Shown: positions 3,448 through 64,000, counted from the first letter of the stretch. The stretch: 64,000 nt of DNA from Candidatus Nealsonbacteria bacterium (GCA_026016225.1 CP061210.1:593131-657130), one strand, 5' to 3'. The notes: generated by a model not told the origin, from the sequence alone. Numbers and translations: made by a program.

Positions 3448-5430
3448 TTAAATGTCAAGATTTTTTACTTTTTTTGCATAACTTTGGATAAACTTTTTTC
3501 TTGATAAAACTTCTTTCCCCATTAAAGTATCAAAAATTTTATCTGCCTCTCTTGCATCTTCAATATTAACTTGAAGTAATGTTCTATTTTCAGGGTTCAT
3601 TGTTGTATCCCATAATTCTCCTGCATTCATCTCTCCTAATCCTTTGTATCTCTGAATAGAGGGTTTAATATTTTTCTTTATTGCCTTTAAAATGCTGAAT
3701 TTCTGGTCTTCGGTGTAAGCGTATTTAATTTCTTTTCCAACCTGAATCTTATAAAGAGGGGGCTGGGCAATATATATGTAACCCTTTTCAATTAAAGGTT
3801 TAAAATAACGGTAAAATAAAGTCAAGAGTAAAGCCTTAATATGATTTCCGTCACTATCTGCATCGCACATTATGATTATACGATGATATCTTGCTTTCTC
3901 GATATTAAAATCTTCGGCAATAGCAGTACCTAAAGCAATAACTAAAGATTTAATTTCTTTTGAAGAAAGAATTCTATCCAGTCGAGCTCTCTCCACGTTC
4001 AAAATTTTACCGCGCAGAGGCAATATGGCTTGAAAATGCCTATCCCTGGCCTGTCTTGAACTTCCGCCTGCCGACTCGCCTTCCACTATATATAATTCTG
4101 ACTCTTCTGCTTTTTTAGAAGAACAATCAGCCAACTTTCCCGGTAGAGCCAGGCCATCTAAAACTCTCTTTCTTAAAATTATGTCTTTGGCAGCTTTGGC
4201 AGCTTTTCTTGCTTTTTGAGCCAAAATAAATTTTTGAATTATTGATTTGGCGTCAATTGGGTTTCTCTCTAAAAAATCCATTAAAGACATGCCCATCACC
4301 TGCTCCACTACTGCTTTGGCTTCAGAATTACCTAATTTTGCCTTTGTCTGACCTTCAAATTGAGGTTCTCTGATTTTAATGGAGATTATCGCCGTTAATC
4401 CTTCTCTGGTATCAAAACCTGTAAAGTTATTGCCGTTTTCTTTTATAAATTCATTTCTTCTGGCATAGTCGTTAAATGTCCTGGTTAAGGCACTTCTAAA
4501 ACCCGTCAGATGCATCCCTCCTTCATGAGTATAGATATTGTTGGCAAAACTATCTTCAATACACTCATACTCGTCTGTATAAATTAAAGCAGCTTCAACT
4601 ATAATTCCGTTTTTTTCTCCATAACAATAAAAAACGTTCTCGGTAAGAGGAGTACGGCCTCGAACCAAATATTTAACGTAAGAAACTATTCCTCCTTCAA
4701 AATAAAAACTATAACCGGTATTAGGTTTAACCGTTTTGTCTATAAAGGTAATTCTCAAACCTTTAGTTAAATAAGCTTGCTGACGGAGATAATCTAAAAT
4801 TTTCTTTTTGTTGAATTTTATCTCTTTAAAAATTGCTGAATCTGGTTCAAAAATAATTATTGTTCCGCTTGTCCTGCACCTGCCAATTTTTTCAACTTTT
4901 GTCTTTGGCTTTCCCCGCGAATATTCTTGGAAATATCTGAAACCATCCCGACAAATTTCAGCTCTCATATATGTTGAAAGAGCGCAAACCACAGAAATAC
5001 CAACACCATGTAATCCACCAGTAGAAACATAAACCTTTCCTCCAAATTTCGCCCCCGTATGTAGAGTTGTCATCACTGTCTCTAAAGCGGATTTTTTTGT
5101 TTGAGGGTGTTTGTCTACCGGAATACCTCTTCCATTATCTTCAACCTTAACTCTATTCCCCGGCAAAAACGTAATTTTAATATCGCTGCAGTAACCCATT
5201 ATGGCTTCATCAATGCTATTTCCAACACATTCTTTTATTAATTGATGCAAACCATCAGGCCCTGTCGACCCAATAAACATTCCCGGTCTTTTCCTAATAG
5301 GTTCTAAGCCATGCAATACATAAATATCTTTTGCCGTATATGTTTTTGACTTACTTTCTTCACTTTTCTTCATCCTCTTTATACTCTTTTTCTTCTTTAA
5401 CTTTTTTACTTTTTTTGTTTTTTTCACCAT
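3448..5430 (-). CDS. gyrB: type IIA topoisomerase subunit B (GyrB/ParE family) with Lys-rich N-terminal tail
   Basis: GHKL ATPase motifs (VEDNGRGIP, GGLHGVG), Toprim EGESAGGS and MCDADSDGNHI. GyrB versus ParE cannot be decided by eye. Confidence 0.8.
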   Translation of the reverse strand: MVKKTKKVKKLKKKKSIKRMKKSEESKSKTYTAKDIYVLHGLEPIRKRPGMFIGSTGPDGLHQLIKECVGNSIDEAIMGYCSDIKITFLPGNRVKVEDNGRGIPVDKHPQTKKSALETVMTTLHTGAKFGGKVYVSTGGLHGVGISVVCALSTYMRAEICRDGFRYFQEYSRGKPKTKVEKIGRCRTSGTIIIFEPDSAIFKEIKFNKKKILDYLRQQAYLTKGLRITFIDKTVKPNTGYSFYFEGGIVSYVKYLVRGRTPLTENVFYCYGEKNGIIVEAALIYTDEYECIEDSFANNIYTHEGGMHLTGFRSALTRTFNDYARRNEFIKENGNNFTGFDTREGLTAIISIKIREPQFEGQTKAKLGNSEAKAVVEQVMGMSLMDFLERNPIDAKSIIQKFILAQKARKAAKAAKDIILRKRVLDGLALPGKLADCSSKKAEESELYIVEGESAGGSSRQARDRHFQAILPLRGKILNVERARLDRILSSKEIKSLVIALGTAIAEDFNIEKARYHRIIIMCDADSDGNHIKALLLTLFYRYFKPLIEKGYIYIAQPPLYKIQVGKEIKYAYTEDQKFSILKAIKKNIKPSIQRYKGLGEMNAGELWDTTMNPENRTLLQVNIEDAREADKIFDTLMGKEVLSRKKFIQSYAKKVKNLDI

Positions 5431-7543: not shown

Positions 7544-8596
7544 TTAAAATTGATTTAAAAATCTGAGGTCGCCTCCATAAAACAACCTAATATCATTGAT
7601 TTTATATTTAAGCATAGCCATTCTATCCATACCCATACCAAAAGCAAAAGCCTGCCAGTTTTTAGGGCTTAAACCAGAATTCTTGAAAACATTAGGATGA
7701 ACCATCCCTCCCGGAAAAACCTCTAACCATCCACTCTGACCACAAGTACTGCAACCTTTCCCATTACATATTGCACACTGAACATCTACTTCAAAAGAAG
7801 GTTCTGTAAAGGGAAAATAACCCGGTCGAAGGCGAACTTTTAAATCTTTCTTAAAAAATTGTTTGAAAAATTTTTTTGCTATTGCTTTAAAATTAGCAAC
7901 AGAAATTGTTTTATCAACCATTAATCCTTCAACCTGGTAAAAATTAATCTCATGTCTGGCATCAGTTGCCTCGTGCCTAAATACCCTGCCAGGAACAATA
8001 ATTCTTAAAGGAGGCTGATTCTTTTCCATGTAACGAACCTGAACAGGAGAAGTTTGGGTTCTCATTAAAAACTTATTTCGAGAAGGAAGATTTTCTCTAT
8101 TCCTTTGCTTTATAAACAAAGTATCTTGCATATCTCGAGCTGGATGGTTTTTGGGAAAATTCAAAGCATCAAAGTTATACCACTCATTTTCAAGCTCAGG
8201 ACCCTCAATAATTGAAAAGCCCATTGACTGGAATATCTTTTCGATTTCTATTTTAGTCTGGGTCAAGGGGTGTAAATGACCAACAGCCGGCTTTTTCCCG
8301 GGGATTGTAATATCAAAAAACTCCTCTTTTTCTCTCCTTACACCTGCCTTTTCTTTAATTTTCAGGCTTTTTTTAACAATCTTCTCTTCTAAAACAGCTT
8401 TAAGCTTATTTGCTTCTTTCCCAACCTTTACTCTTTTTTTCTTTGGCATCTTTTTCAGAGAACGCAAAACCAGGGAAAGTTCACCTTTCTTTCCTAAATA
8501 TTGTTTATAAACATCGTTCAACTCAGTTAAATTTTGGCTCTTTTTTATCTCTTTTTCAGCCCTTTTTTCAATGTTTTTTAAGTTAATTTTTTTCAT
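7544..8596 (-). CDS. pheS: phenylalanine--tRNA ligase alpha subunit
   Basis: Class II motifs (HPARDMQDTLF, FRHEATDARH, GMGMDRMAML). Confidence 0.92.
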   Translation of the reverse strand: MKKINLKNIEKRAEKEIKKSQNLTELNDVYKQYLGKKGELSLVLRSLKKMPKKKRVKVGKEANKLKAVLEEKIVKKSLKIKEKAGVRREKEEFFDITIPGKKPAVGHLHPLTQTKIEIEKIFQSMGFSIIEGPELENEWYNFDALNFPKNHPARDMQDTLFIKQRNRENLPSRNKFLMRTQTSPVQVRYMEKNQPPLRIIVPGRVFRHEATDARHEINFYQVEGLMVDKTISVANFKAIAKKFFKQFFKKDLKVRLRPGYFPFTEPSFEVDVQCAICNGKGCSTCGQSGWLEVFPGGMVHPNVFKNSGLSPKNWQAFAFGMGMDRMAMLKYKINDIRLFYGGDLRFLNQF

Positions 8597-8796
8597 TTCT
8601 TCGCTAAAAAATAAGTTCCTTCTACTATTAATTTTACCTTAATTTTTGCCTTAAATCAAGGTAAAACTGTGCACAAATAAACCTCCTTAAAATAAAAAAA
8701 ACAGAAGAAATAAATATAAAAAAAATTACATTATTTTTTCTTTCTGTTTTTTGATATACAATTACATCCAATTACATACAATTCTATCTAATTTTG

Positions 8797-8870
8797 CGGG
8801 GACGACGAGACTCGAACTCGCAACCTCGTGATCGACAATCACGAGCTCTAACCAATTGAGCTACGTCCCC
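8797..8870 (-). tRNA. tRNA-Asp (anticodon GTC)
   Basis: Minus strand: GGGGACG TA GCTC AATTGGTTA GAGC T CGTGA TTGTCGA TCACG AGGTT GCGAG TTCGAGT CTCGT CGTCCCC G. Cloverleaf is canonical with a TTCGAGT T-loop and a GG D-loop. No CCA is encoded. Confidence 0.85.
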
Positions 8871-8874
8871 AGGG

Positions 8875-8947
8875 TGCCGGTGACGGGACTCGAACCTGTA
8901 ACCTCTAGCTTATGATGCTATCGCTCTAACCATTGAGCTACACCGGC
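8875..8947 (-). tRNA. tRNA with CAT anticodon (elongator Met or Ile2/lysidine type)
   Basis: Minus strand: GCCGGTG TA GCTC AATGGTTA GAGC G ATAGC ATCATAA GCTAG AGGTT ACAGG TTCGAGT CCCGT CACCGGC A. G1-C72 is paired and the T-loop is canonical. There is one A/C mismatch in the T stem. Confidence 0.75.
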
Positions 8948-8948
8948 T

Positions 8949-9019
8949 TTGCGGTGCCTGGAATTGCACCAGGGCCTCCAGCTTATGGGACTGGCGAGGT
9001 ACTACTCCTCTACACCGCG
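8949..9019 (-). tRNA. tRNA with CAT anticodon and an initiator-like acceptor (C1/A72 mismatch), atypical loops
   Basis: Minus strand: CGCGGTG TA GAGG AGTAGTA CCTC G CCAGT CCCATAA GCTGG AGGC CCTGG TGCAATT CCAGG CACCGCA A. The acceptor resembles E. coli tRNA-fMet (CGCGGGG...CCCCGCA). Atypical points are C at position 33, no GGG/CCC in the anticodon stem, a D-loop without GG, and T-loop TGCAATT. Confidence 0.5.
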
Positions 9020-9031
9020 ACAATATCGCTA

Positions 9032-9060
9032 ATTTTAGCTTTTTTGAACACAAGAGTCAA
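9032..9060 (-). promoter_or_regulatory. sigma70-like promoter for the tRNA trio
   Basis: Minus strand reads TTGACT (9055-9060), a 17-nt spacer, then TAAAAT (9032-9037). The -10 ends 12 nt upstream of tRNA position 1. Confidence 0.5.
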
Positions 9061-9088
9061 TCCTTCGGCGCGGGCTCAGGACAACTTA

Positions 9089-9604
9089 TCACAACGCCTC
9101 CAAATCAACCAAAGCTTTTTCGTATACATCTAAAACCCTTTTTGACTCTTTTATATCCAAGCGATAACTTATATCATGAACAATATTCAAACATACTTTG
9201 TGAGCCTCTCTGACTTCTTCAATATTCTCAATAACGTTGGTAGTTAACTTGTTTAATCTCTCTTCTAAAGTCTGACCTAAAAAACCCTCTTTTTGTAAAA
9301 TATCGTTCAAAATAGCTTCTGCTTCAATTATGGCTAACTTTGCTTCAGGTTCACTGCCTGTATCCAATTTTTCTCTAATCTTAACCCATTTCTTATCGAT
9401 TCTTGGTAATCCATAATGTCGAAAAGTTAAGTATTCTTTAATGTCCCAAAATATTAGTCTTTTTAACCAGGTGGTTCTAAGTAAAACAAGAACAATTGTT
9501 ACAATGAAAAATAAATTTAGAGCTAAAAAGATAAATTTTACAATCAAAAGCCAGTCAGGAAGAATGGGGTTTAAAATAAATTGAATTATATTATCTAAGG
9601 TCAT
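9089..9604 (-). CDS. hypothetical membrane-anchored protein
   Basis: 171-aa ORF with an N-terminal TM segment (WLLIVKFIFLALNLFFIVTIVLVLL) and a helical C-terminus. I recognise no family. Confidence 0.45.
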   Translation of the reverse strand: MTLDNIIQFILNPILPDWLLIVKFIFLALNLFFIVTIVLVLLRTTWLKRLIFWDIKEYLTFRHYGLPRIDKKWVKIREKLDTGSEPEAKLAIIEAEAILNDILQKEGFLGQTLEERLNKLTTNVIENIEEVREAHKVCLNIVHDISYRLDIKESKRVLDVYEKALVDLEAL

Positions 9605-9615
9605 AAATGTATTCT

Positions 9616-11055
9616 TTAAATATATTCTTTTTCCAAAACCTCAGCTATATTCATTATCTTTTCCTCCTCAAAGGGCTTCCCAATAATTTGCAAGCCAACA
9701 GGTAAATTTTGAACTCTACCGCAGGAAACGGATATTGCAGGCAATCCAGCTAAATTAACAGAGGCAGTGAAAATATCAGATAAATACATTTGTAAGGGGT
9801 CTTTGGCTCTCTCTCCTAATTTAAATGCAGGGGTTGGAGAAGTAGGAGTAAAAATAACATCGACTTTTTCAAAGGCTTTATCAAAATCTTTTTTAATTAA
9901 TGTTCTAACTTTTTGGGCTCTTACATAATAAGCTTCATAATAACCCGAGGACAGAGCATATGTCCCTAACATTATTCTTCTTCTCACCTCATTTCCAAAA
10001 CCTTCTCCCCTACTTTTTAAATAAACATTCAATAAATTGTTGGATTGTTTGATTGTTGGATTGTTGGATATTGAGTATCCGTATTTAATTCCATCATAAC
10101 GAGCAAGATTGGCACTAGCTTCAGAAGGAGCAATTATATAATAACACGGTAAAGCATATTCTGTATGAGGAAGACTAACTTCTTCAATTTTAGCTCCTTC
10201 TTTTTCATATTTTTTTATTGCCTTTTTTATTAATTTTATCACTTCAGGGTCAGTCCCTTCAACAAAATACTCTTTGGGAACACCAATAACTAAATTGGAA
10301 ATTGGATATTGAATATTGGAAATTTTAGATTCGACTGAAGTAGAATCTAATGGGTCCTTTCCTTTTATAACATCAAATACAATTTTACAATCTTGAACCG
10401 TTTTTGTAATGGGTCCTATCTGGTCTAAAGAAGAAGCAAAAGCAATCAAGCCATATCTTGATACAGAACCATAAGTAGGTTTTAAGCCAACCAGGCCACA
10501 AAAAGAAGCAGGTTGTCTGATTGAACCTCCTGTATCAGAACCTAAAGCAAAAAGGCAAAAATTGGCAGCTACTGCAGCAGCTGACCCTCCTGAAGAGCCT
10601 CCAGGTACTCTGGTTAAATCAATCGGGTTTTTCGTCGGACCAAAAGCAGAATTCTCTGTAGAAGAACCCATTGCAAACTCATCCAGATTTGTTTTGGCCA
10701 AAATTACAGCTCCTTGTTCCTTTAATTCCTTTATACAAGTAGCATCATAGGGAGCTATGTAATTTTCTAAAATCTTAGAACCTGCAGTACATTTTATTCC
10801 CTCCACCAAGATATTATCTTTTATAGCTACCGGACTTCCTGCAAGGAAAGAAATTTCCTTTTCTTTAGAAATCATCTCATCTACCTTTTTTGCTTCAGAG
10901 AGAGCTGAATCTTCAGAAACAGTTAAAAAAGAATGAATTTTTTTATCTTCTTTTTTAATCTTTTCTAAATATGCTTTGGTTAATTCTACTGCCGAAAATT
11001 CTTTTTTTAATAGACCTTGGTGAACTTTTTTTATTGTAAGATTTATTAATTCCAT
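9616..11055 (-). CDS. gatA: Glu/Asp-tRNA amidotransferase subunit A
   Basis: Amidase signature [12 protein letters not shown]...[12 protein letters not shown]. It directly follows gatC. Confidence 0.92.
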
Positions 11056-56433: not shown

Positions 56434-58419
56434 TTACAGAAAAAGAGGAAGAGAAATCAAGGCTACTTTTCCAATTAATTTTATCAAAATATCTATTGCC
56501 GGACCTGAAGTATCTTTAAAAGGATCTCCTACCGTATCGCCAATTATTGCTGCCCGGTGAGCAGCAGACCCCTTACCTCCTAAGTTTCCAGCTTCAATAT
56601 ATTTTTTGGCATTATCCCAGGCTCCTCCGGCATTTGCCATAGTGAGGGCAAGTGGAAAGCCAGCGATTAAACTTCCAGCTAAAATTCCAGCTAAACCTTC
56701 TACTCCTAAGAAAAGTCCGGCTAAAATTGGAACTAAAATGATTAAAATTCCAGGAAGAATCATCTCCTTTAGGGATATTTTAGTAACAAGGTCAATACAT
56801 CTTCCATAATCAGGTTTTACCTTTCCCTCCCTCAAACCAGGAATCTCTTTAAATTGTCTTCTTACTTCTTTAACAACTTTTAAGCCTCCCCTACTCACCC
56901 CCCTCATTAATAAAGAAGAAAACAAAAAAGAAAGCATAGCTCCAATGAAAAGTCCAGCCATTACTTTAGGATTTGAAAGGTTAACTGTTTCCAGGCGAGC
57001 AGCCTGAAAAAAAGCAGCTAACCAAGCCAGGGCAACTAAACCAGCCGAGCCAATAGCAAATCCTTTTCCAGCAGCAGCAGTAGTATTACCAACAGCATCT
57101 AAGGCTTCTGTTTTTTGACGCACTTCTTCTGGTAAACCAGCCATCTCAGAAATTCCAGCCGCATTATCAGCAATTGGACCATAACAATCAGCAGAAAGAT
57201 TAATTCCCAAAACTCCCAAAATTCCAATTGAGGCAATAGCAATTCCATAAAGACCCCCTAAATAATATGTCAAAACCGTAGCCACTGCCACTCCTAAAAT
57301 CGGTAAAAAGATACTTTCAATTCCAACTGAGAGTCCTTCAATAATCAAGATTGAGGCTCCGGTCTGAGAAGCTTTAGCAATGCTTAAAACTGGTGGTTTA
57401 TCTCCTGCGGTATAATATTCAGTAACCTTGCCAATCAAGAAACCAACTCCCAAGCCCAGTAAGAAACTATAAAAAAGATTAATTTGATTAAAAAGTTTAG
57501 AAATTATTAAATAAGCAGCAATAACCATTAAGACATTAGCTATTAAAATTCCTTTTCCCATAGCTTTTTGGATTTCTTCTATCTGTTTATTAAATTCAGC
57601 TTTTTCTATCCTTTTGGAAACCCTGATAAAAAAGCTGCCTACAAGTGAGCTTAAGATTCCTGCTGAGGCCAAAATTATTGGTAAGGAAACACCCTTTACT
57701 CCATAGATGTTCCAACCAATAACCATAGAAGCTATAATTGCTGAAACATAGGTTTCAAAGAGGTCCGAACCCATACCAGCAATATCCCCAACATTATCAC
57801 CAACCTGGTCAGCAATTACAGCCGGGTTTCTAATATCATCTTCTGGAATTCCTATCTCAATCTTTCCAACTAAATCTGCTCCTATATCAGCACTCTTAGT
57901 AAAAATCCCACCTCCTACTCTTAAAAAAAGAGCTGTCAGAGAAGAACCAAAAGCAAAACTTATTAAAAGCTCAACATCTTTAAAGAAAAACCAAAGTGTG
58001 CTAATACCTAACAACCCTAAGCCAACTACTAAAAATCCCATCACCATTCCAGCCGAAAAAGCAATCTTGAAACCCTTGGAAAAACTAATCCTGGTAGCTT
58101 CAGTTGTTCTAACATTGGCTTGAGTTGAAACCATCATTCCTATATATCCTGCCAGATAAGAAACTCCTGCCCCACCCAAAAAAACCAAAACCTTTAAAGG
58201 ACTCTTGGTCATCAATCCCAATCCTAAAGCAATCAAGGCCAAAACTATAACCATTACCTTAAATTCCCTTTTCAAAAAAGCCTTAGCTCCTTCCCGAATG
58301 GCCTGAGATATCTCTATCATTTTACCTGAACCAGAAGAGGCTTGTTTTATCTTTTGAATTAAAAAAACTGCAAAAGCTATGGCGGAAAGAGAACTAATAA
58401 TTGAAATTAAGTTTTCCAT
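56434..58419 (-). CDS. hppA: membrane-integral ion-translocating pyrophosphatase
   Basis: 661 aa and multi-TM, with ADLVGKIE, DNVGDIAGMGSDLFE and GDTVGDPFKDTSGPAIDILIKL motifs. Confidence 0.92.
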   Translation of the reverse strand: MENLISIISSLSAIAFAVFLIQKIKQASSGSGKMIEISQAIREGAKAFLKREFKVMVIVLALIALGLGLMTKSPLKVLVFLGGAGVSYLAGYIGMMVSTQANVRTTEATRISFSKGFKIAFSAGMVMGFLVVGLGLLGISTLWFFFKDVELLISFAFGSSLTALFLRVGGGIFTKSADIGADLVGKIEIGIPEDDIRNPAVIADQVGDNVGDIAGMGSDLFETYVSAIIASMVIGWNIYGVKGVSLPIILASAGILSSLVGSFFIRVSKRIEKAEFNKQIEEIQKAMGKGILIANVLMVIAAYLIISKLFNQINLFYSFLLGLGVGFLIGKVTEYYTAGDKPPVLSIAKASQTGASILIIEGLSVGIESIFLPILGVAVATVLTYYLGGLYGIAIASIGILGVLGINLSADCYGPIADNAAGISEMAGLPEEVRQKTEALDAVGNTTAAAGKGFAIGSAGLVALAWLAAFFQAARLETVNLSNPKVMAGLFIGAMLSFLFSSLLMRGVSRGGLKVVKEVRRQFKEIPGLREGKVKPDYGRCIDLVTKISLKEMILPGILIILVPILAGLFLGVEGLAGILAGSLIAGFPLALTMANAGGAWDNAKKYIEAGNLGGKGSAAHRAAIIGDTVGDPFKDTSGPAIDILIKLIGKVALISLPLFL

Positions 58420-58520
58420 ATTATTAAAAAATCTGTTTTTAACAGATTCATCTCCTATTTTATTTAATTAATGATATTGATTTTGAAACTATTGTCAAGA
58501 GGAAATATTTTTAAAAAATA

Positions 58521-58553
58521 AAAAAATACAGAGGACAACCCTCTGTATTTTTG
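58521..58553. terminator. bidirectional intrinsic terminator
   Basis: TACAGAGG-acaac-CCTCTGTA flanked by an A-run and a T-run. Confidence 0.6.
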
Positions 58554-58571
58554 TTTAATTATCAAGTAAGT

Positions 58572-58898
58572 TTATTCTTCTTCGTATAAATTATACGCTT
58601 TTCCCTTTTTTCTGGAAAGAGACCACCGAATTAAAAAAGTGCTGAATCCCAAAACAAGGAAAATCCATATAGTCAAACAAGCACAAATTTTAAGATAGAA
58701 AAAAATTGTCAAAATTATAAGTATTAAAGTCCAGACAAGCCAAGTTCTTGTTTCCTTGTTCCTCTTCTTCCATACCTTAATAGTTTTTACTAATGAATAT
58801 AAGACTAAGATTAAAATTATCCACCAGGGGAAACAAGAAGAAGCTTCTATACTAAATATTTGAGATATAAAGGAAAATACAAAATCATCTAAAAACAA
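58572..58898 (-). CDS. hypothetical small membrane protein
   Basis: 108-aa ORF with 3-4 hydrophobic helices. The start is uncertain because the first codon overlaps a terminator hairpin. Confidence 0.35.
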   Translation of the reverse strand: MFLDDFVFSFISQIFSIEASSCFPWWIILILVLYSLVKTIKVWKKRNKETRTWLVWTLILIILTIFFYLKICACLTIWIFLVLGFSTFLIRWSLSRKKGKAYNLYEEE

Positions 58899-59017: not shown

Positions 59018-59770
59018 TTATAACACAATTTTTATTAACAACATTAGTGATATCCCAAATAAAAAGACAGTAAAATAGATTATTGATTTTTTAACATTTT
59101 CCTGCTGTTTAATCTCAGGGATTAAATCTGATGAAGCAATATAAATGAAATTCCCAGCAGCAAAGGGTAATAAAAAAACAATTGATTCTCCTATTCTTTC
59201 TGAAAGTAAAAACCCAATAATTCCACCAAAAATTACACTAATAGCTGATAAAAAGTTTAAAAACAAAGCCCTTGTTTTTTTAAACCCTCCATAGATTAAA
59301 ATTCCAAAGTCTCCGATTTCTTGAGGAATTTCATGAAGAGCTACTGCTAAAGAAGTAACTACTCCCAGCTGAAATGAAGCGACAAAAGAAGCTGCAATGA
59401 CTAAGCCATCAATAAAGTTATGTATGGCATCTGAAAATAAAATTAAATAAGAAAATGGCATTATCTTAGGGTGCTCTCTGGCGTGATGGTGATGCCACTT
59501 AATAAAGTTTTCCAAAACAAAAAAGGTACAAAATCCAAAAATCAAATATAAAAATAAATTCAAAATTTGGTCTGGTTCAAAGAGCTCAATTGCTTCTGGA
59601 AGTAAATGAAGAAAAGCTCCTCCGATTAAGGCGCCGGCAGAAAAAGCCACTAAAACCAATAGGAGTTGGTCTAATAATCTTTCTTTTAAAAATAAGGTTA
59701 AAGCTCCGATAAAGGCGATAAGACTGATTAAAGAAGTACAGAGAATGATATAAAAAAAGACAGCTGCCAT
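59018..59770 (-). CDS. zupT: ZIP-family divalent metal (zinc) transporter
   Basis: HNFIDGL and HEIPQEIGDF motifs, and a His-rich loop (WHHHHAREH). Confidence 0.8.
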   Translation of the reverse strand: MAAVFFYIILCTSLISLIAFIGALTLFLKERLLDQLLLVLVAFSAGALIGGAFLHLLPEAIELFEPDQILNLFLYLIFGFCTFFVLENFIKWHHHHAREHPKIMPFSYLILFSDAIHNFIDGLVIAASFVASFQLGVVTSLAVALHEIPQEIGDFGILIYGGFKKTRALFLNFLSAISVIFGGIIGFLLSERIGESIVFLLPFAAGNFIYIASSDLIPEIKQQENVKKSIIYFTVFLFGISLMLLIKIVL

Positions 59771-59818: not shown

Positions 59819-60106
59819 TCAATTTCTTATCTTCTTTTGAATCCTAATTGCTTTCCCTTTAATAAGAGCTTGGGCTATTTTTCTGTGGGCTGAGATTAAG
59901 ATTCGTCCAAGAGTGCTTTGAGAAATTCTCATTTTTTTGGCAGCCTCGGTTTGACTTAATCCTCTTAAATCACAAAGTCTAATTGCTTCCAACTCATCTA
60001 CTTTTAAATCCACTTCTTCTAACACAGAAAGAGGTATAGCTCTTGGTTTAAAATAAGTGACATTGGGGTCAAATGAAATTCTTCTTGGTTTTATTGGTCT
60101 TGACAT
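59819..60106 (-). CDS. DUF134 (UPF0251) small DNA-binding protein
   Basis: MSRPIKPRRISFDPNVTYFKPRAIPL... followed by a sigma-70 region-4-like HTH (LSQTEAAKKMRISQSTLGRIL). Confidence 0.7.
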   Translation of the reverse strand: MSRPIKPRRISFDPNVTYFKPRAIPLSVLEEVDLKVDELEAIRLCDLRGLSQTEAAKKMRISQSTLGRILISAHRKIAQALIKGKAIRIQKKIRN

Positions 60107-60984
60107 ATTACATTATTTAATTTTTTAAATATTTTTTTAATTTCGGTTTTGGCTTTAAGGTTAGTTTCTACAATTGGCTTTAAGTTAGAAACTGCTTTAA
60201 ATATCTTTTTATCGTAAGAAATTTTACCTAAAATTCTTTTACCTATCTGTCCTGAGCCATGTCGAAGGGTCCATTTCTCAATTTTATTACTCAATCCAGG
60301 ATCAATATTCCACTTATTAATTACCAAACCCCAAGGAATATTAAAATGATTTACTACTTTCAAAACCCTTTTTAAATCGGAAAAAGCTGAAGGAGTAGGC
60401 TCTGTAATCAAAATAGCAAAATTTGAATCCTGTAAGGCAGCTATAACCGGACAACCTGTTCCCGGAGAAGAATCTAAGATTTGAAGCTTACAGCCAGATT
60501 TGTCTGCCTGTTTTTTAAGTTCTGTTATTATTTTTCCCGAACCTGTTTCTCCAGGTAAAAGATTTCCAATGATTAAAGGAAAACCGTATTTTGTATTCTT
60601 TATTATAATCTCCCCATTTTGAACAGGTTTTAATTTAATGGCTTTTTGAGGACAGACAATTTCACAAACACCGCACCCCTCACATAAAAATGGATTTAGT
60701 TTTGGTTTTCCATCTACCATTTTTATTGCTCCAAAACGACATTTCTCAACACATAAACCACAACCATTACACTTTTTATAATCAATTATTGGTTTAGCTG
60801 AAGTAACCACTGGAATCTTCTCCCTCGAGTCTTTAATTTCATTCAACCAAATAGCTAAATTAGGAGCATCAACATCACAATCTACAGCTACTATTTTTTT
60901 AGATTCAGTAAAAAGTATTGCTAAACTTGAAGCCAACATTGATTTTCCTACACCTCCCTTTCCGCTCGCAATTACCAATTTCAT
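60091..60984 (-). CDS. MinD/ParA-superfamily P-loop ATPase with inserted 2x[4Fe-4S] ferredoxin domain (COG1149-like), copy 1
   Basis: Deviant Walker A SGKGGVGKS and two CxxCxxCxxxC motifs (CNGCGLCVEKC, CEGCGVCEIVC). Confidence 0.72.
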   Translation of the reverse strand: MKLVIASGKGGVGKSMLASSLAILFTESKKIVAVDCDVDAPNLAIWLNEIKDSREKIPVVTSAKPIIDYKKCNGCGLCVEKCRFGAIKMVDGKPKLNPFLCEGCGVCEIVCPQKAIKLKPVQNGEIIIKNTKYGFPLIIGNLLPGETGSGKIITELKKQADKSGCKLQILDSSPGTGCPVIAALQDSNFAILITEPTPSAFSDLKRVLKVVNHFNIPWGLVINKWNIDPGLSNKIEKWTLRHGSGQIGKRILGKISYDKKIFKAVSNLKPIVETNLKAKTEIKKIFKKLNNVICQDQ

Positions 60985-61574
60985 ATTTTTGGTATTAATT
61001 TTTCTAAAATCTTAAAATCCTTTTTAAGAATTCCTTTCATATTGATGTTATAAGTAGCTACGGCCGGATGATAAAGAGGAATAATTTTAATGCTCTGAAA
61101 AAGACTTTTAACCTCAAAAACTTTTCCGTGGATTTTGCTTATTCCCTGAATTTGATCTTTTAGTCCGTATTCTTCAAAAATATATTTTGTAGAATGATTC
61201 CCTAAGGTGCAAATTACCTTGGGTTTTATGATTTTTATCTGTCTATCTAAATATGGAGAACAAGCTTCAATCTCGTTTAAATTTGGAGCTCTATTCTTCA
61301 AATCAGAAGTTACAGGCCGGCATTTAAGTAAATTGCAAATATAGACTTCTTCTCTCTTCAGGTTAATGGATTTTAAAAGCTCATCCAAAATCTTCCCCGC
61401 AGCCCCAACAAACGGTTTGCCTTTTGCGTCTTCCCAATATCCCGGGGCCTCAGCGCAAAACATTATTTTCGCCCGAGGGTTCCCTTCTCCGGGGACATAA
61501 TGGGCAATATTTTTGTACAAAGGGCATTTCTTACAGCTCAAGATTTCATTTTTTATTTTTTCTAACTCTTCCAT
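60981..61574 (-). CDS. family 4 uracil-DNA glycosylase (Fe-S type)
   Basis: CKKCPLY...GEGNPRAKIMFCAEAPG...C...HP pattern. Confidence 0.8.
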   Translation of the reverse strand: MEELEKIKNEILSCKKCPLYKNIAHYVPGEGNPRAKIMFCAEAPGYWEDAKGKPFVGAAGKILDELLKSINLKREEVYICNLLKCRPVTSDLKNRAPNLNEIEACSPYLDRQIKIIKPKVICTLGNHSTKYIFEEYGLKDQIQGISKIHGKVFEVKSLFQSIKIIPLYHPAVATYNINMKGILKKDFKILEKLIPKI

Positions 61575-61606
61575 TTAAAAAACTAAATTTTAATTATTTT
61601 TGACAT

Positions 61607-62776
61607 TTAGCCAAACATTAAAACTTCAGGACGAAACATTATAACTAAGCCCAAAAGCAAAAGTAAAATTCCACTAATCAGTTTTATTGCTTTAAGATAT
61701 TTTTGAGAGGCTTGAGTAATTCTTAGAGTCAAAACTGCAATTATAAAAATGATAAAATCATCTATCATATAAAATAAGATATAAATCAAAAGATAAAAGT
61801 AATAGGAAAGAGTAGGTAAATTGAAGCCCGTTAAAATTTTAGTAAAAACTAAAGGAAAACCAAAAGAGCAACAGAGTTCCACCATATTTACTCCAGCTGC
61901 TACTATTGCTGTCCCCAATATAGTTATAGACAAGGAAGTTTCTCTTTTGGAAATGGTTTCCATTTTTTCAAATAGTTTCCTCTCAAATCTCACAAAAACA
62001 CCTTCTTTTACAGAGCCAACCTCGCACAATTTACAAATTATGCCGTGGAAATAATCTTTTAATAAAAAGAGAGCGAAGATCGCAATAATCCCCCCAACTA
62101 AATTAGTTATGAACTTTATGTGAGATAGAACTAAGAATAAATTCAGCCAAGCAGAAATGAATAAAAAGTAAACTATTCCTGAAACCAAAATAAAAGTTCC
62201 TCCAATCAAAAACACTCTTTCTCTAATTCCGGTTGAAATCAAAACAGTAAGTAAAAATCCCAAAGCTACCATAGCACAAGCATTAAAGCCATCCAAAGCT
62301 CCTAAAACTATGGATAGAGCTAAGGGAGAAAATTTTGAAAGAGAAATTTCGCCGAAAATTGGAAGAGAAATTTTATGTTCGTCTGATGGAGGCTCATGTG
62401 GAGGCTGAGAAATTTCTTCTATTAATCCCAAAACATAATTTTCAATATCATTACCTATTTCTTGAGAAAAACCCAAAAAATAACGCTCTCCAATAAAGGT
62501 TATTGGTACATATCCTTGAACCTCTCGAGCCACTTCATAAACCTGATACATTTCTTTTAACAAATCCACATTTTCTTTTTCAAAAATGCCATATTCTTTA
62601 AGTTCAATCTCTGAATATTTATTTGCTAATTCCTCCAGAAATATCTTTTTTGAGGCACAATTAAGGCAGGTATAACTAAAGAAAAAATTAATTTCTATTT
62701 TTTCTTGTGCCTGAGTGAAATTAAACGCAGTTAACAGCAAACAAGAAAGCAAAATAACTAAGACTTTTTCTTTCAT
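61607..62776 (-). CDS. secreted thioredoxin-like (CxxC) domain fused to a multi-pass membrane domain (CcdA/DsbD-like; tentative)
   Basis: Signal peptide, FFFSYTCLNCASKK in a Trx-like N-domain, then 6 or more TM helices with the LGALDGFNACAM and CCSFGFP motifs. Confidence 0.4.
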   Translation of the reverse strand: MKEKVLVILLSCLLLTAFNFTQAQEKIEINFFFSYTCLNCASKKIFLEELANKYSEIELKEYGIFEKENVDLLKEMYQVYEVAREVQGYVPITFIGERYFLGFSQEIGNDIENYVLGLIEEISQPPHEPPSDEHKISLPIFGEISLSKFSPLALSIVLGALDGFNACAMVALGFLLTVLISTGIRERVFLIGGTFILVSGIVYFLFISAWLNLFLVLSHIKFITNLVGGIIAIFALFLLKDYFHGIICKLCEVGSVKEGVFVRFERKLFEKMETISKRETSLSITILGTAIVAAGVNMVELCCSFGFPLVFTKILTGFNLPTLSYYFYLLIYILFYMIDDFIIFIIAVLTLRITQASQKYLKAIKLISGILLLLLGLVIMFRPEVLMFG

Positions 62777-62842
62777 ATTTTGATAAATTATTAATTATTT
62801 TTATTGAGGAAGAATACAAAAAGAAGAAATAATAGCCACAAT

Positions 62843-63685
62843 TTATATACATTTATTATAATCAAAGTCTAATAAACGACCTTTTGAATAAAGTTCAACT
62901 AATTTTCTTGAATAAGGAATTTCTTTTTCAACGCTCACACCAAATTTCTTGGTGATGGGGTAAATTTTTTTCTTATCACCCAAGTTTGCTTGATTTAAAA
63001 TTACCTTAGCTGGCACTTTGAGTTTTTGGCACAAATCCAGAATTAAATTCAAGTCGTGGGCTCCCATTGGGGTAGGTTCCGTAACAGCATAAGCTAAATC
63101 ACAATCCAATAAAGCTGAAATTACCGGACAATGGGTACCGGGAGCTGTATCAAATAAAATGAAATCTGCTTTTTGTTTTTTAGCAAAATCTAAAGCAAAT
63201 TTTTTAGTCTTAGCAACAATGGGTCCTGTTTCCTCTACTCCAGGATTAGATAGTCCTGAAATTAACCAAAAATTATTTTTTATTCGATTTACAAAAATCT
63301 GACCTACTTTTTCTTTTCTTGACATTATAGCTCCGTAAGGACAAACTATCCAGCATGCTCCGCAAGAAGAACACAATTCTTTAATAAATATTGGAAATTT
63401 CTTTGGTGGCTGAAACACAGCGTTACTCCTGCAGGTCTTTACACATAATCCACATTTTTTGCATTTTTGTTTAATTAATCTGGGATATTCAGCATAAACA
63501 TTTTTTCTGACTTTTTTCAGTTTCTGTCCCAATAACAAATAATCATTGGGACACTCCACGTCGCAATCACAAAGAATAACTCTCTGTTTCTTTCTTATTA
63601 GCTGACTTGCCATCAAAATAGAGAAGGTGCTTTTTCCCGTACCTCCCTTCCCTCCTGTGATAGCGAATTTCTTAATTTTTCCCAT
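62843..63685 (-). CDS. MinD/ParA-superfamily P-loop ATPase with inserted ferredoxin domain (COG1149-like), copy 2
   Basis: TGGKGGTGKST with CKKCGLCVKTC and CSSCGACWIVC. Confidence 0.72.
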   Translation of the reverse strand: MGKIKKFAITGGKGGTGKSTFSILMASQLIRKKQRVILCDCDVECPNDYLLLGQKLKKVRKNVYAEYPRLIKQKCKKCGLCVKTCRSNAVFQPPKKFPIFIKELCSSCGACWIVCPYGAIMSRKEKVGQIFVNRIKNNFWLISGLSNPGVEETGPIVAKTKKFALDFAKKQKADFILFDTAPGTHCPVISALLDCDLAYAVTEPTPMGAHDLNLILDLCQKLKVPAKVILNQANLGDKKKIYPITKKFGVSVEKEIPYSRKLVELYSKGRLLDFDYNKCI

Positions 63686-63790
63686 ACCCTACTAACAAAT
63701 ATTTTGTTCCCCTAATTCACAAAGGTTACCTTTTTGGAATTCTTCTATATTCTTGGCAATATTTTTATCAAACGCCTTATATATTTTTAA

Positions 63791-64000
63791 TTACTCTTTT
63801 TCTTTTGTCGGCTTTTCCAACTTAACCAATTGGTTCTCTGAAAAATCTTTTATTATTTGTCTTATTGTGCCCTGTTCCGCTTTATAAACCTCTATTAAAT
63901 TATCCCTTAATGTATGAAAAGATATGGGACCGATTTGTCTTACAATTAAAACATCTGGTTTTTGTTCTAATAAATATTTAGCTACCGCAAGACCTGCCCT
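63791..64000 (-). CDS. NifX/NifB-C-terminal-like (dinitrogenase Fe-Mo cofactor family, PF02579-type) protein, C-terminal fragment
   Basis: My translation from the window edge is RAGLAVAKYLLEQKPDVLIVRQIGPISFHTLRDNLIEVYKAEQGTIRQIIKDF...KEKE*. It fits the G.G..A...L...gvdvvI...iGp.a...L...gI.vy pattern. The gene continues beyond 64000. Confidence 0.55.
   Translation of the reverse strand, partial: RAGLAVAKYLLEQKPDVLIVRQIGPISFHTLRDNLIEVYKAEQGTIRQIIKDFSENQLVKLEKPTKEKE

Follow-up and report, generated by a model that had tools for sequence, protein, structure and literature searches.

In a stretch of 64,000 nucleotides from a Candidatus Nealsonbacteria bacterium (GCA_026016225.1, CP061210.1:593131-657130; "the window," whose numbering we use throughout), we found that the genes near the end encode most of what appears to be a single nine-gene unit. 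The unit includes two Fe-S ATPases, two metal transporters, proteins with a NifX fold, and a small DNA-binding protein (DUF134), and on balance it is probably a regulated operon for handling Fe-S or other metal clusters that is coupled to metal transport and homeostasis. The form of the unit found in bacteria of the candidate phyla radiation (CPR) and in DPANN archaea is a distinct variant of a known, functionally unsolved module of anaerobes, the orange protein (ORP)-type module.

The cluster runs past the end of the window. The complete genome of Ca. Nealsonbacteria CP179891.1 (694,748 bp) is 99.6% identical to the window over the cluster, and the window itself is 100% identical to a Logan contig. 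An initial annotation, made from the window alone, had proposed looking beyond position 64000 for the rest of the operon; in the near-identical strain (locus L001), the rest comprises the remainder of a CDF::NifX fusion gene, a NifX-like gene, and a DUF5320 gene. That strain is our source for the operator and for the first three genes, which are beyond the window. In order of transcription, with all of the cluster genes read on the minus strand of the window, the features are:

L001 5054-5073: operator of this operon, some 1.9 kb past the end of the window (virtual position about 65,912-65,931).
Outside the window, upstream of the NifX-like gene in the near-identical genome: DUF5320 gene, 124 amino acids.
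L001 5529-5942, outside the window: standalone NifX-like gene, 137 amino acids, PF02579 at 64 bits.
L001 5950-7194: full CDF::NifX gene, which runs past the window end, 414 amino acids, with Cation_efflux, ZT_dimer, and Nitro_FeMo-Co domains.
63791-64000, minus strand: 3' end of CDF::NifX, the last 69 codons and the stop, encoding the C-terminal half of the Nitro_FeMo-Co domain (PF02579).
62843-63685, minus strand: ATPase A, 280 amino acids, CbiA at 53.5 bits plus Fer4, COG1149 type.
61607-62776, minus strand: thioredoxin-membrane protein (TRXM), 389 amino acids, no Pfam or NCBIfam family.
60981-61574, minus strand: family-4 uracil-DNA glycosylase (UDG4), 197 amino acids, TIGR00758 at 211 bits (cut-off 125).
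60091-60984, minus strand: ATPase B, 297 amino acids, CbiA at 66.8 bits plus two Fer4 motifs.
59819-60106, minus strand: DUF134, 95 amino acids, PF02001 at 82.5 bits plus helix-turn-helix families.
59018-59770, minus strand: ZIP importer, 250 amino acids, PF02535 at 149 bits, the last gene of the unit.
58522-58552, no strand assigned: hairpin with a stem of 13-14 bp and a T-run, a likely operon terminator (from a consensus scan only).

Every gene of the cluster is on the same strand. DUF134 overlaps the 3' end of ATPase B by 16 bp, the stop of UDG4 overlaps the start of ATPase B by 4 bp, and the gaps between the genes that do not overlap are 32-105 bp. A near-consensus σ70-type promoter (TTGACA-17-TATACT, L001 5040-5068) lies about 60 bp 5' of DUF5320. 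Because of the tight spacing and overlaps, the promoter before DUF5320, and the terminator after ZIP, we therefore read the window cluster as the 3' two-thirds of one nine-gene transcription unit, which is presumably co-transcribed (DUF5320, NifX-like, CDF::NifX, ATPase A, TRXM, UDG4, ATPase B, DUF134, ZIP).

All of the minus-strand open reading frames that the initial annotation had named are present, and those with recognized domains pass the Pfam or NCBIfam cut-offs. The ZIP transporter, the pair of COG1149-type ATPases with 4Fe-4S motifs (CbiA and Fer4 matches in both), and the overlap of DUF134 with the preceding gene were all correctly described. One assignment had to be revised. The gene at the window edge had been taken for a NifX/NifB-C-like gene, and the fragment does have a Nitro_FeMo-Co domain (PF02579, 30.5 bits versus a cut-off of 26.3 in the Pfam profile search) rather than belonging to an unrelated family, but it is the C terminus of the CDF::NifX fusion and not a standalone orange-protein gene.

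To describe the neighborhood in other genomes, we scanned one genome per GTDB species with the ATPases as anchors, which gave 80 loci, and annotated these with iterated hidden Markov models built from the operon's proteins. The core is a NifX-like gene and two ATPase genes, usually with DUF134 and often with DUF5320, and it is found in Clostridia, Pelotomaculum, methanogens, Thermoplasmata, Asgard archaea, Planctomycetes, and others. In 26 of the loci, the ATPase has 44% or more identity to the query; these loci come from CPR bacteria and DPANN-type archaea, and they form a distinct variant (the CPR/DPANN type). Many of these contigs end early, so their gene counts are minima. CDF::NifX is present in 16 of the 26 CPR/DPANN-type loci and in 2 of 55 other loci; UDG4, in 12 of 26 versus 0 of 55; and TRXM, in 11 of 26 versus 1 of 55. 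Because of this linkage, UDG4 and TRXM are conserved partners within the CPR/DPANN variant and not accidents. We rejected chance juxtaposition, as the same genes occur together in dozens of independent loci. The neighborhood is thus conserved, and the earlier suggestion of a shared Fe-S or metal operon fits the strong, lineage-wide linkage of UDG4 and TRXM. The initial annotation had considered an ORP-like module in a CPR-type genome to be notable, but it is no rarity there: thousands of close homologs exist in Patescibacteria.

The CPR-type cluster, with CDF::NifX, TRXM, and UDG4, also occurs on six archaeal DPANN-type contigs (L014, L021, L022, L023, L024, and L029), with ATPases that are 44-59% identical. 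We rejected the possibility that these are mislabeled bacterial contigs from metagenome-assembled genomes: L022 encodes reverse gyrase and MCM, and L014 encodes an archaeal RecJ. Because these two contigs are truly archaeal, the variant is common to both domains, and its archaeal occurrence points to a probable transfer of the module between domains. Some binchicken labels among L004-L016 and other loci ("Saccharibacteria," "Gammaproteobacteria," Pseudomonadales) appear unreliable and were not used; by their genes and ATPase identity, these contigs are Parcubacteria-like. Two loci contain insertions. In L004 (CPR), a glutamate-synthase-like FMN-domain gene and a 197-amino-acid open reading frame lie between the two ATPases (8180-9977), and L023 (labeled Nanohaloarchaeota) has a radical-SAM gene in the cluster with weak similarity to MoaA and tungsten cofactor maturases (3917-4879). 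In a literature search, we did not find a description of the CPR/DPANN variant or of its operator, nor anything pertinent on DUF134, COG1149, DUF5320, ORP, or IssA in CPR, which is not proof that none exists.

The initial annotation had compared this cluster to the ORP system of Desulfovibrio vulgaris. The published complex consists of Orp3, Orp4, Orp5, Orp8, and Orp9/MrpORP. Orp3 and Orp4 are paralogs with two 4Fe-4S motifs each, and they receive clusters from MrpORP; Orp8 is an orange-protein homolog; and Orp9/MrpORP joins an Mrp/NBP35 domain to a NifX-like domain. The genes form two divergent σ54-dependent operons, with DVU2106 as the enhancer-binding protein. Part of the comparison holds. 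Like orp1/orp2 (DVU2103-2109), the unit encodes a pair of MinD-family ATPases that are paralogs of one another and have two [4Fe-4S] ferredoxin motifs apiece. A small protein with the Nitro_FeMo-Co (orange-protein) fold is likewise common to both systems, although here its gene is outside the window and only the domain of the CDF fusion is within it. Both systems are restricted to anaerobes.

The other part does not hold. We found no Mrp-type open reading frame that could correspond to Orp9 (Mrp/NBP35::NifX) in the 64-kb window (the rest of the genome was not searched) and no Mrp/NBP35::NifX in the CPR/DPANN loci, whereas it is present in some Firmicutes loci (L046). Control by σ54 was rejected, as the operon leader has no −24/−12 match and matches occur at the level expected by chance; nor is there an enhancer-binding-protein gene in the operon's neighborhood. 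Instead of two divergent operons, there is a single co-directional one with a σ70-type promoter and a palindromic operator, and it has additional conserved members (CDF::NifX, ZIP, TRXM, UDG4, and DUF5320). Any equivalence of DUF134 to a subunit of the ORP complex is conjectural; here, it behaves as the operon's likely DNA-binding regulator.

Both ATPases have features of redox or metal ATPases. ATPase A has a P-loop of the MinD/ParA superfamily with a deviant Walker A motif (GKGGTGKS), an inserted 2x[4Fe-4S] ferredoxin domain, and a cysteine in switch II. ATPase B is its paralog (GKGGVGKS, a 2x4Fe-4S insert, and C178). Across 149 homologs from all of the phyla, the deviant Walker A motif with its signature lysine, two switch-I aspartates, the eight ferredoxin cysteines, and the switch-II segment D171-x2-PG-x2-C178 are about 90-100% conserved, with about 90% for the Walker A motif, the cysteines, and the switch-II segment. 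The proteins are not ordinary Mrp/ApbC: they score 44-50 bits against the MrpORP model (NF041136), versus a cut-off of 450, and match it in the P-loop only. Their Fer4_NifH scores were below the cut-off in the Pfam profile search.

A further identity that we rejected is MinD itself, as the two proteins score 31.7 and 45.9 bits against TIGR01968, for which the cut-off is 212.9. This bears on the idea that the unit is a system for cell division or positioning, in which the MinD-like ATPases would determine where the septum or some other structure is placed, with accessory roles for the remaining genes. The ATPases do share the superfamily fold and the deviant Walker A motif, and the D. vulgaris ORP complex has been described as "putatively involved in cell division," with MrpORP at the poles. 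But besides falling so far short of the MinD models (31-46 bits versus 213), the ATPases have MinC, MinE, or division genes nearby in none of the 80 neighborhoods. The genes that they consistently occur with encode NifX-fold proteins, metal transporters, and a helix-turn-helix regulator, and every ATPase has the eight ferredoxin cysteines and the switch-II cysteine. We consider a primary role in division to be highly improbable.

The combination of a NifX-fold carrier with a dimeric Fe-S ATPase that has a deviant Walker A motif and a cysteine in the switch-II region is also reminiscent of NifH working with NifX, NafY, or the C-terminal domain of NifB. The D-x6-C spacing in the ATPases presumably corresponds to that of Asp125 and Cys132 in NifH, as judged from spacing and not from an alignment. 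In contrast to nitrogenase cofactor assembly, there are no genes here for nitrogenase, NifEN, or the radical-SAM protein NifB, and NifH lacks the inserted ferredoxin domains.

What might the NifX-fold proteins carry? The closest solved structures for the 137-amino-acid NifX-like protein are MTH1175 (E = 1e-19), TM1290, and then the orange protein of D. gigas (2wfb, E = 2e-12). MTH1175 has been called IssA-type (PMC5524996). IssA, the thioferrate Fe-S storage protein of Pyrococcus furiosus, combines an IPR003731 domain with an unstructured cationic tail, rich in tryptophan, glycine, and arginine (W/G/R), that binds anionic thioferrate (PMC5524996). The NifX-like protein has the same IPR003731/Nitro_FeMo-Co globular domain and ends in a cationic, unstructured-looking Gly/Arg tail (SPGRFRRRGFGPGGRRHRHRGR). 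Its last 30 amino acids include nine Arg or Lys, seven Gly, and one acidic residue, with few aromatic residues. Such a tail on the first NifX gene is near-universal in the CPR/DPANN variant, versus 6 of 89 elsewhere. The W/G/R repeat chemistry of IssA tails is found on the neighboring protein DUF5320, which has W/G/R repeats (GRGWGRGWGRGGGRGFGRGRGWGRGWGW) followed by a coiled coil.

There are also differences from IssA. The tail is about 30 amino acids instead of 70 and has no tryptophan and no proline-rich segment; the W/G/R repeats are on a separate coiled-coil protein; and IssA has not been reported with paired ATPases or transporters. By analogy, the chemistry of the tail and of DUF5320 supports, but does not prove, the binding of an anionic Fe-S species by one or both of these proteins. 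Elsewhere, we identified Pfam-confirmed fusions of DUF134::NifX, DUF134::DUF5320, and NifX::DUF5320, and also a fusion of Mrp::NifX. Because the first three of these exist, DUF134, NifX, and DUF5320 probably work together.

The similarity to orange proteins raises another potential ligand, namely Mo/W-Cu clusters: the NifX-like proteins would bind Mo/W-S-Cu clusters, and the operon would detoxify or traffic thiomolybdate or thiotungstate. The D. gigas protein is a clear homolog (2wfb, E = 2e-12), Orp8 homologs hold a [S2MoS2CuS2MoS2] cluster, and the radical-SAM gene of L023 has its weak similarity to MoaA and tungsten cofactor maturases. In the CPR loci, however, there are no genes for ModABC, Moa/Moe, or enzymes that use molybdenum or tungsten; the transporters are ZIP and CDF proteins, which handle divalent cations and not oxyanions; the closest relatives are IssA-type rather than ORP; and the cationic tails would suit a polymeric anionic Fe-S species. 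Heterometal handling is very unlikely in our view.

The transporter link is both covalent and operonic. CDF::NifX matches Cation_efflux (130 bits) and ZT_dimer (64 bits), both above the cut-off, and its three-domain architecture is kept in 120 of the 120 top homologs, down to 48% identity. The closest solved structure is FieF/YiiP (6e-18), with the E. coli and Shewanella proteins as the best matches. CDF::NifX differs from these in its C-terminal NifX-fold domain and in its transport site, which departs from the canonical D-D/H-D of FieF: the residues H46, D50, E154, and H158 (H-D/E-H) do not vary within the family.

A simpler account would be that this is an operon for the homeostasis of zinc or another divalent metal, with DUF134 as the regulator of the two transporters. 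TRXM, UDG4, and the ATPases would then be passengers, present because of shared descent and the packing of operons in a compact genome. ZIP and CDF proteins are classically zinc transporters, CPR genomes are compact with long runs of genes on the same strand, and a mini-module (DUF5320-DUF134-(CDF)-ZIP-TRXM) recurs without the ATPases in metagenome loci anchored on TRXM. But the NifX-ATPase-ATPase core occurs with DUF134 and the same family of operators in many phyla without ZIP or CDF, and the NifX domain is fused to CDF in 120 of 120 homologs. In several divergent lineages, translational coupling links UDG4 to ATPase B, while the position of UDG4 varies within the cluster, and the variant is common to both domains. 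Plain zinc homeostasis is quite unlikely. We view it, cell division, and Mo/W-Cu handling as weaker explanations than the handling of Fe-S or metal clusters.

TRXM belongs to an uncharacterized family of membrane redox proteins from CPR and DPANN, with over 1,100 homologs, essentially all from Patescibacteria. As the initial annotation had proposed for a secreted thioredoxin-like domain joined to a multi-pass membrane domain, it has a signal-like N terminus, an extracytoplasmic thioredoxin-fold domain (C37xxC40, consensus CPHC), and then a polytopic membrane domain. The invariant residues are C37xxC40 and, in the membrane part, D162-G-F-N-x-C167 (DGFNACA), C248xxC251, and E300/C303. In an AlphaFold2 model, the thioredoxin domain is confident and the membrane part is modest, and Foldseek confirmed the thioredoxin fold for the N-terminal domain only. 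The membrane domain had no match among solved structures or profiles, including DsbD/CcdA, DsbB, and VKOR.

In a metagenome scan anchored on TRXM, its most common neighbor was ZIP (14 of 39 fully flanked loci). In several lineages of Patescibacteria, a single-cluster ferredoxin of 60-69 amino acids (CxxCxxC…CP) is encoded 5-10 bp 5' of TRXM (L113 7082-7288; L116 7671-7871; L117 7677-7877; L139 7766-7948; and L153 568-777), which suggests that it may be a partner of TRXM. From these patterns, we infer that TRXM may be a cysteine relay that carries redox equivalents or a thiophilic metal across the membrane, in a role linked to metal import. Like DsbD/CcdA and MerT/MerP, to which the analogy is functional, it joins an extracytoplasmic CxxC domain with cysteines in membrane helices and a CxxC in a predicted cytoplasmic loop. 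Unlike them, its membrane domain lacks similarity in sequence or solved structure, and its partners are ZIP and a small ferredoxin instead of thioredoxin or MerA.

The DNA repair enzyme is a family-4, Fe-S uracil-DNA glycosylase, as first annotated. It aligns to the Sulfolobus tokodaii enzyme (4zbx, E = 7e-60) and to 1l9g and 1ui0, and its four Fe-S cysteines (C14, C17, C85, and C105) and the AEAPG (motif A) and HPA (motif B) sequences are all conserved. UDG4 lies between the ATPases in some loci, follows DUF134 in others, and elsewhere is upstream on the opposite strand, but it stays within the cluster, and across loci it repeatedly overlaps the start of ATPase B. A second gene with a uracil-avoidance function, of the dCTP deaminase/dUTPase family, lies outside the window about 0.9 kb 5' of the operon promoter (L001 3657-4205).

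The operator is a 20-bp near-palindrome (TTATGGGTATATACTCATAA) that lies over the −10 box, and the combination TTGACA-N7-TTATGGGTATATACTCATAA is present in about 20 divergent CPR loci, in the upstream regions of operons that begin with DUF5320. Allowing at most two mismatches, the 16-bp core of the operator has 28 sites in about 2 Mb of sequence, and 25 of these lie 40-254 bp 5' of genes of the module; there is no site within the 64-kb window. Related palindromes, such as TTATTGACATATGTCAATAA in Clostridia, head ORP-type clusters outside of CPR, and in all, operators of this kind are found at this operon and about 30 other loci. A generic frame, TTAT-N4-ATAT-N4-ATAA with palindromic N4 that contain G or C, has 35 sites (versus 1.8 in shuffled sequences), 31 of them 5' of module genes.

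DUF134 is a small helix-turn-helix protein that resembles region 4 of sigma-70, and in a Pfam search it has the sole DNA-binding domain in the module. The presence of the operator tracks the presence of DUF134 (p = 0.0024 and 6.5e-13), with exceptions on truncated contigs. Furthermore, the recognition helix of DUF134 co-varies with the operator core: SQSTFQRIL goes with GGGTATATACTC, and ARTTVQGIY goes with TGACATATGTCA. We infer that DUF134 is probably the repressor-type regulator of the operon, with NifX and DUF5320 as its sensing partners. Clostridial DUF134 proteins have conserved cysteines (VCCLPE…QEEC), and many of the CPR mini-module versions keep two of them. Because the window's DUF134, like its closest relatives, has none of the Clostridial cysteines (N-terminal or "EEC"), Fe-S binding by DUF134 itself would be lineage-dependent, if it occurs at all.

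These cysteines also bear on a different view, in which the palindrome is bound by another regulator encoded elsewhere (for example, of the CRP/FNR or DtxR/Fur type) and DUF134 is, for example, an Fe-S-binding subunit of the complex. A resemblance to a [2Fe-2S]-binding protein has been noted for Orp5, and the Clostridial site TTGAC-N4-GTCAA resembles the boxes of the CRP/FNR family. Nevertheless, it is DUF134 that the operator tracks and whose recognition helix co-varies with the core, the module has no other DNA-binding domain, and the motif persists in CPR and DPANN genomes that have very few regulators. We judge a different regulator to be unlikely.

The operon leader has another element. 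About 12 of 27 CPR operon leaders contain AAAGGTCG, which lies 6-21 or more nucleotides 3' of the −10 box (L001, at about 5090-5100, and the leaders of L004, L005, L008, L010, L111, L116, L122, L130, L133, L139, and L141). We saw no obvious pairing partner for it and no match in Rfam, which gave nothing credible for the operon leader as a whole.

If this is indeed an operon for the handling of Fe-S or metal clusters, then its parts could act as follows. ZIP would import a divalent metal and CDF::NifX would export or sense one; Fe2+ is the most plausible candidate, and Zn2+ is another. Alongside ZIP, TRXM would pass thiol/disulfide redox equivalents, or a thiophilic metal, through the membrane. 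Anionic metal-sulfur species would be held by the cationic-tailed proteins with a NifX fold, together with DUF5320 and its W/G/R repeats. The two MinD-family ATPases, each with its 2x[4Fe-4S] insert and conserved switch cysteine, would act as an ATP-driven heterodimer that assembles or reduces clusters or hands them over to clients such as UDG4. DUF134 would sense the status of clusters or metal through its NifX and DUF5320 partners and, by binding the 20-bp palindrome over the −10 box, would repress or derepress the entire unit.

Several points weigh against this account. ZIP and CDF proteins are mostly zinc transporters, and the transport site of CDF::NifX is non-canonical. UDG4 might be present here through inherited synteny or co-transfer and not as a client. 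What supports the analogy to IssA is composition and the closest solved relative rather than a phylogeny. The biochemical function of any ORP-type ATPase is not known, and in the D. vulgaris system, a defect in cell morphology is the sole reported phenotype. As for the operator, its frame was derived after the fact from the sequences that it was then used on; the loci are related by descent, and the statistics therefore exaggerate their independence; the half-sites in Clostridia resemble CRP/FNR-type boxes; and both the operator and the first three genes come from a strain that is 99.6% identical and not from the window's own genome.

A more ambitious interpretation, which we offer as tentative and on the whole doubtful, is that DUF134 is the DNA-binding subunit of a class of unrecognized, cross-domain switches that respond to metalloclusters and that it controls an ancient module for the storage and mobilization of Fe-S of the IssA/thioferrate type. 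The switch would bind TTAT-N4-ATAT-N4-ATAA and would read the cluster load through its NifX-fold and DUF5320 partners, with which DUF134 forms single fused proteins in some lineages. The module would be ATP-driven and, in CPR and DPANN, would be wired to Fe2+ transport (by ZIP and CDF::NifX), to TRXM, and to UDG4. TRXM would be a ferredoxin-fed thiol relay, UDG4 would be an Fe-S client, and the module would have been exchanged between two radiations of ultrasmall cells.

The source is a bacterium, as the window carries bacterial EF-Tu, EF-G, PheST, GyrB, and SecY, and the GC content of 33% and the near-uniform strand bias agree with this. NCBI assigns identical proteins to Candidatus Nealsonbacteria, which belongs to the Parcubacteria within CPR. 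The gene 3' of the operon is a membrane pyrophosphatase (56434-58498; of the NCBIfam models, it fits the sodium-translocating type best, with 833 bits versus a cut-off of 546), which has its own near-consensus promoter (TTGACA-16-TATCAT, 58498-58471) right after the terminator; L008 also has a pyrophosphatase close to the cluster. The sole large difference from CP179891.1 is at 58537-58889, where the window has about 350 bp and the other genome has about 130 bp. This window-specific stretch contains a hydrophobic 108-amino-acid open reading frame with a TTG start (58572-58898) that is not called on the identical Logan contig. Elsewhere in the window, three tRNA genes (Asp-GTC, Met-CAT, and Met-CAT) form a tight cluster on the minus strand at 8796-9020.

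Few sets of conserved hypothetical genes are as widespread in anaerobes as the ORP-type module, and fifteen years on, its function is still unsettled, with both cell division and Fe-S maturation having been proposed. The CPR/DPANN variant offers new handles on this problem: divalent-metal transporters that share the operon and, in the case of CDF, are fused to a NifX domain; cationic tails like that of IssA; a candidate Fe-S client enzyme whose gene is translationally coupled to the module; and fusions that join DUF134, NifX, and DUF5320. The sharply defined operator makes DUF134 a testable candidate regulator, and TRXM is flagged as a large uncharacterized membrane-redox family in CPR and DPANN. 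Overall, these organisms, which have few regulators and no electron-transport chains, have a conserved and apparently cross-domain unit, probably for metal and Fe-S homeostasis.

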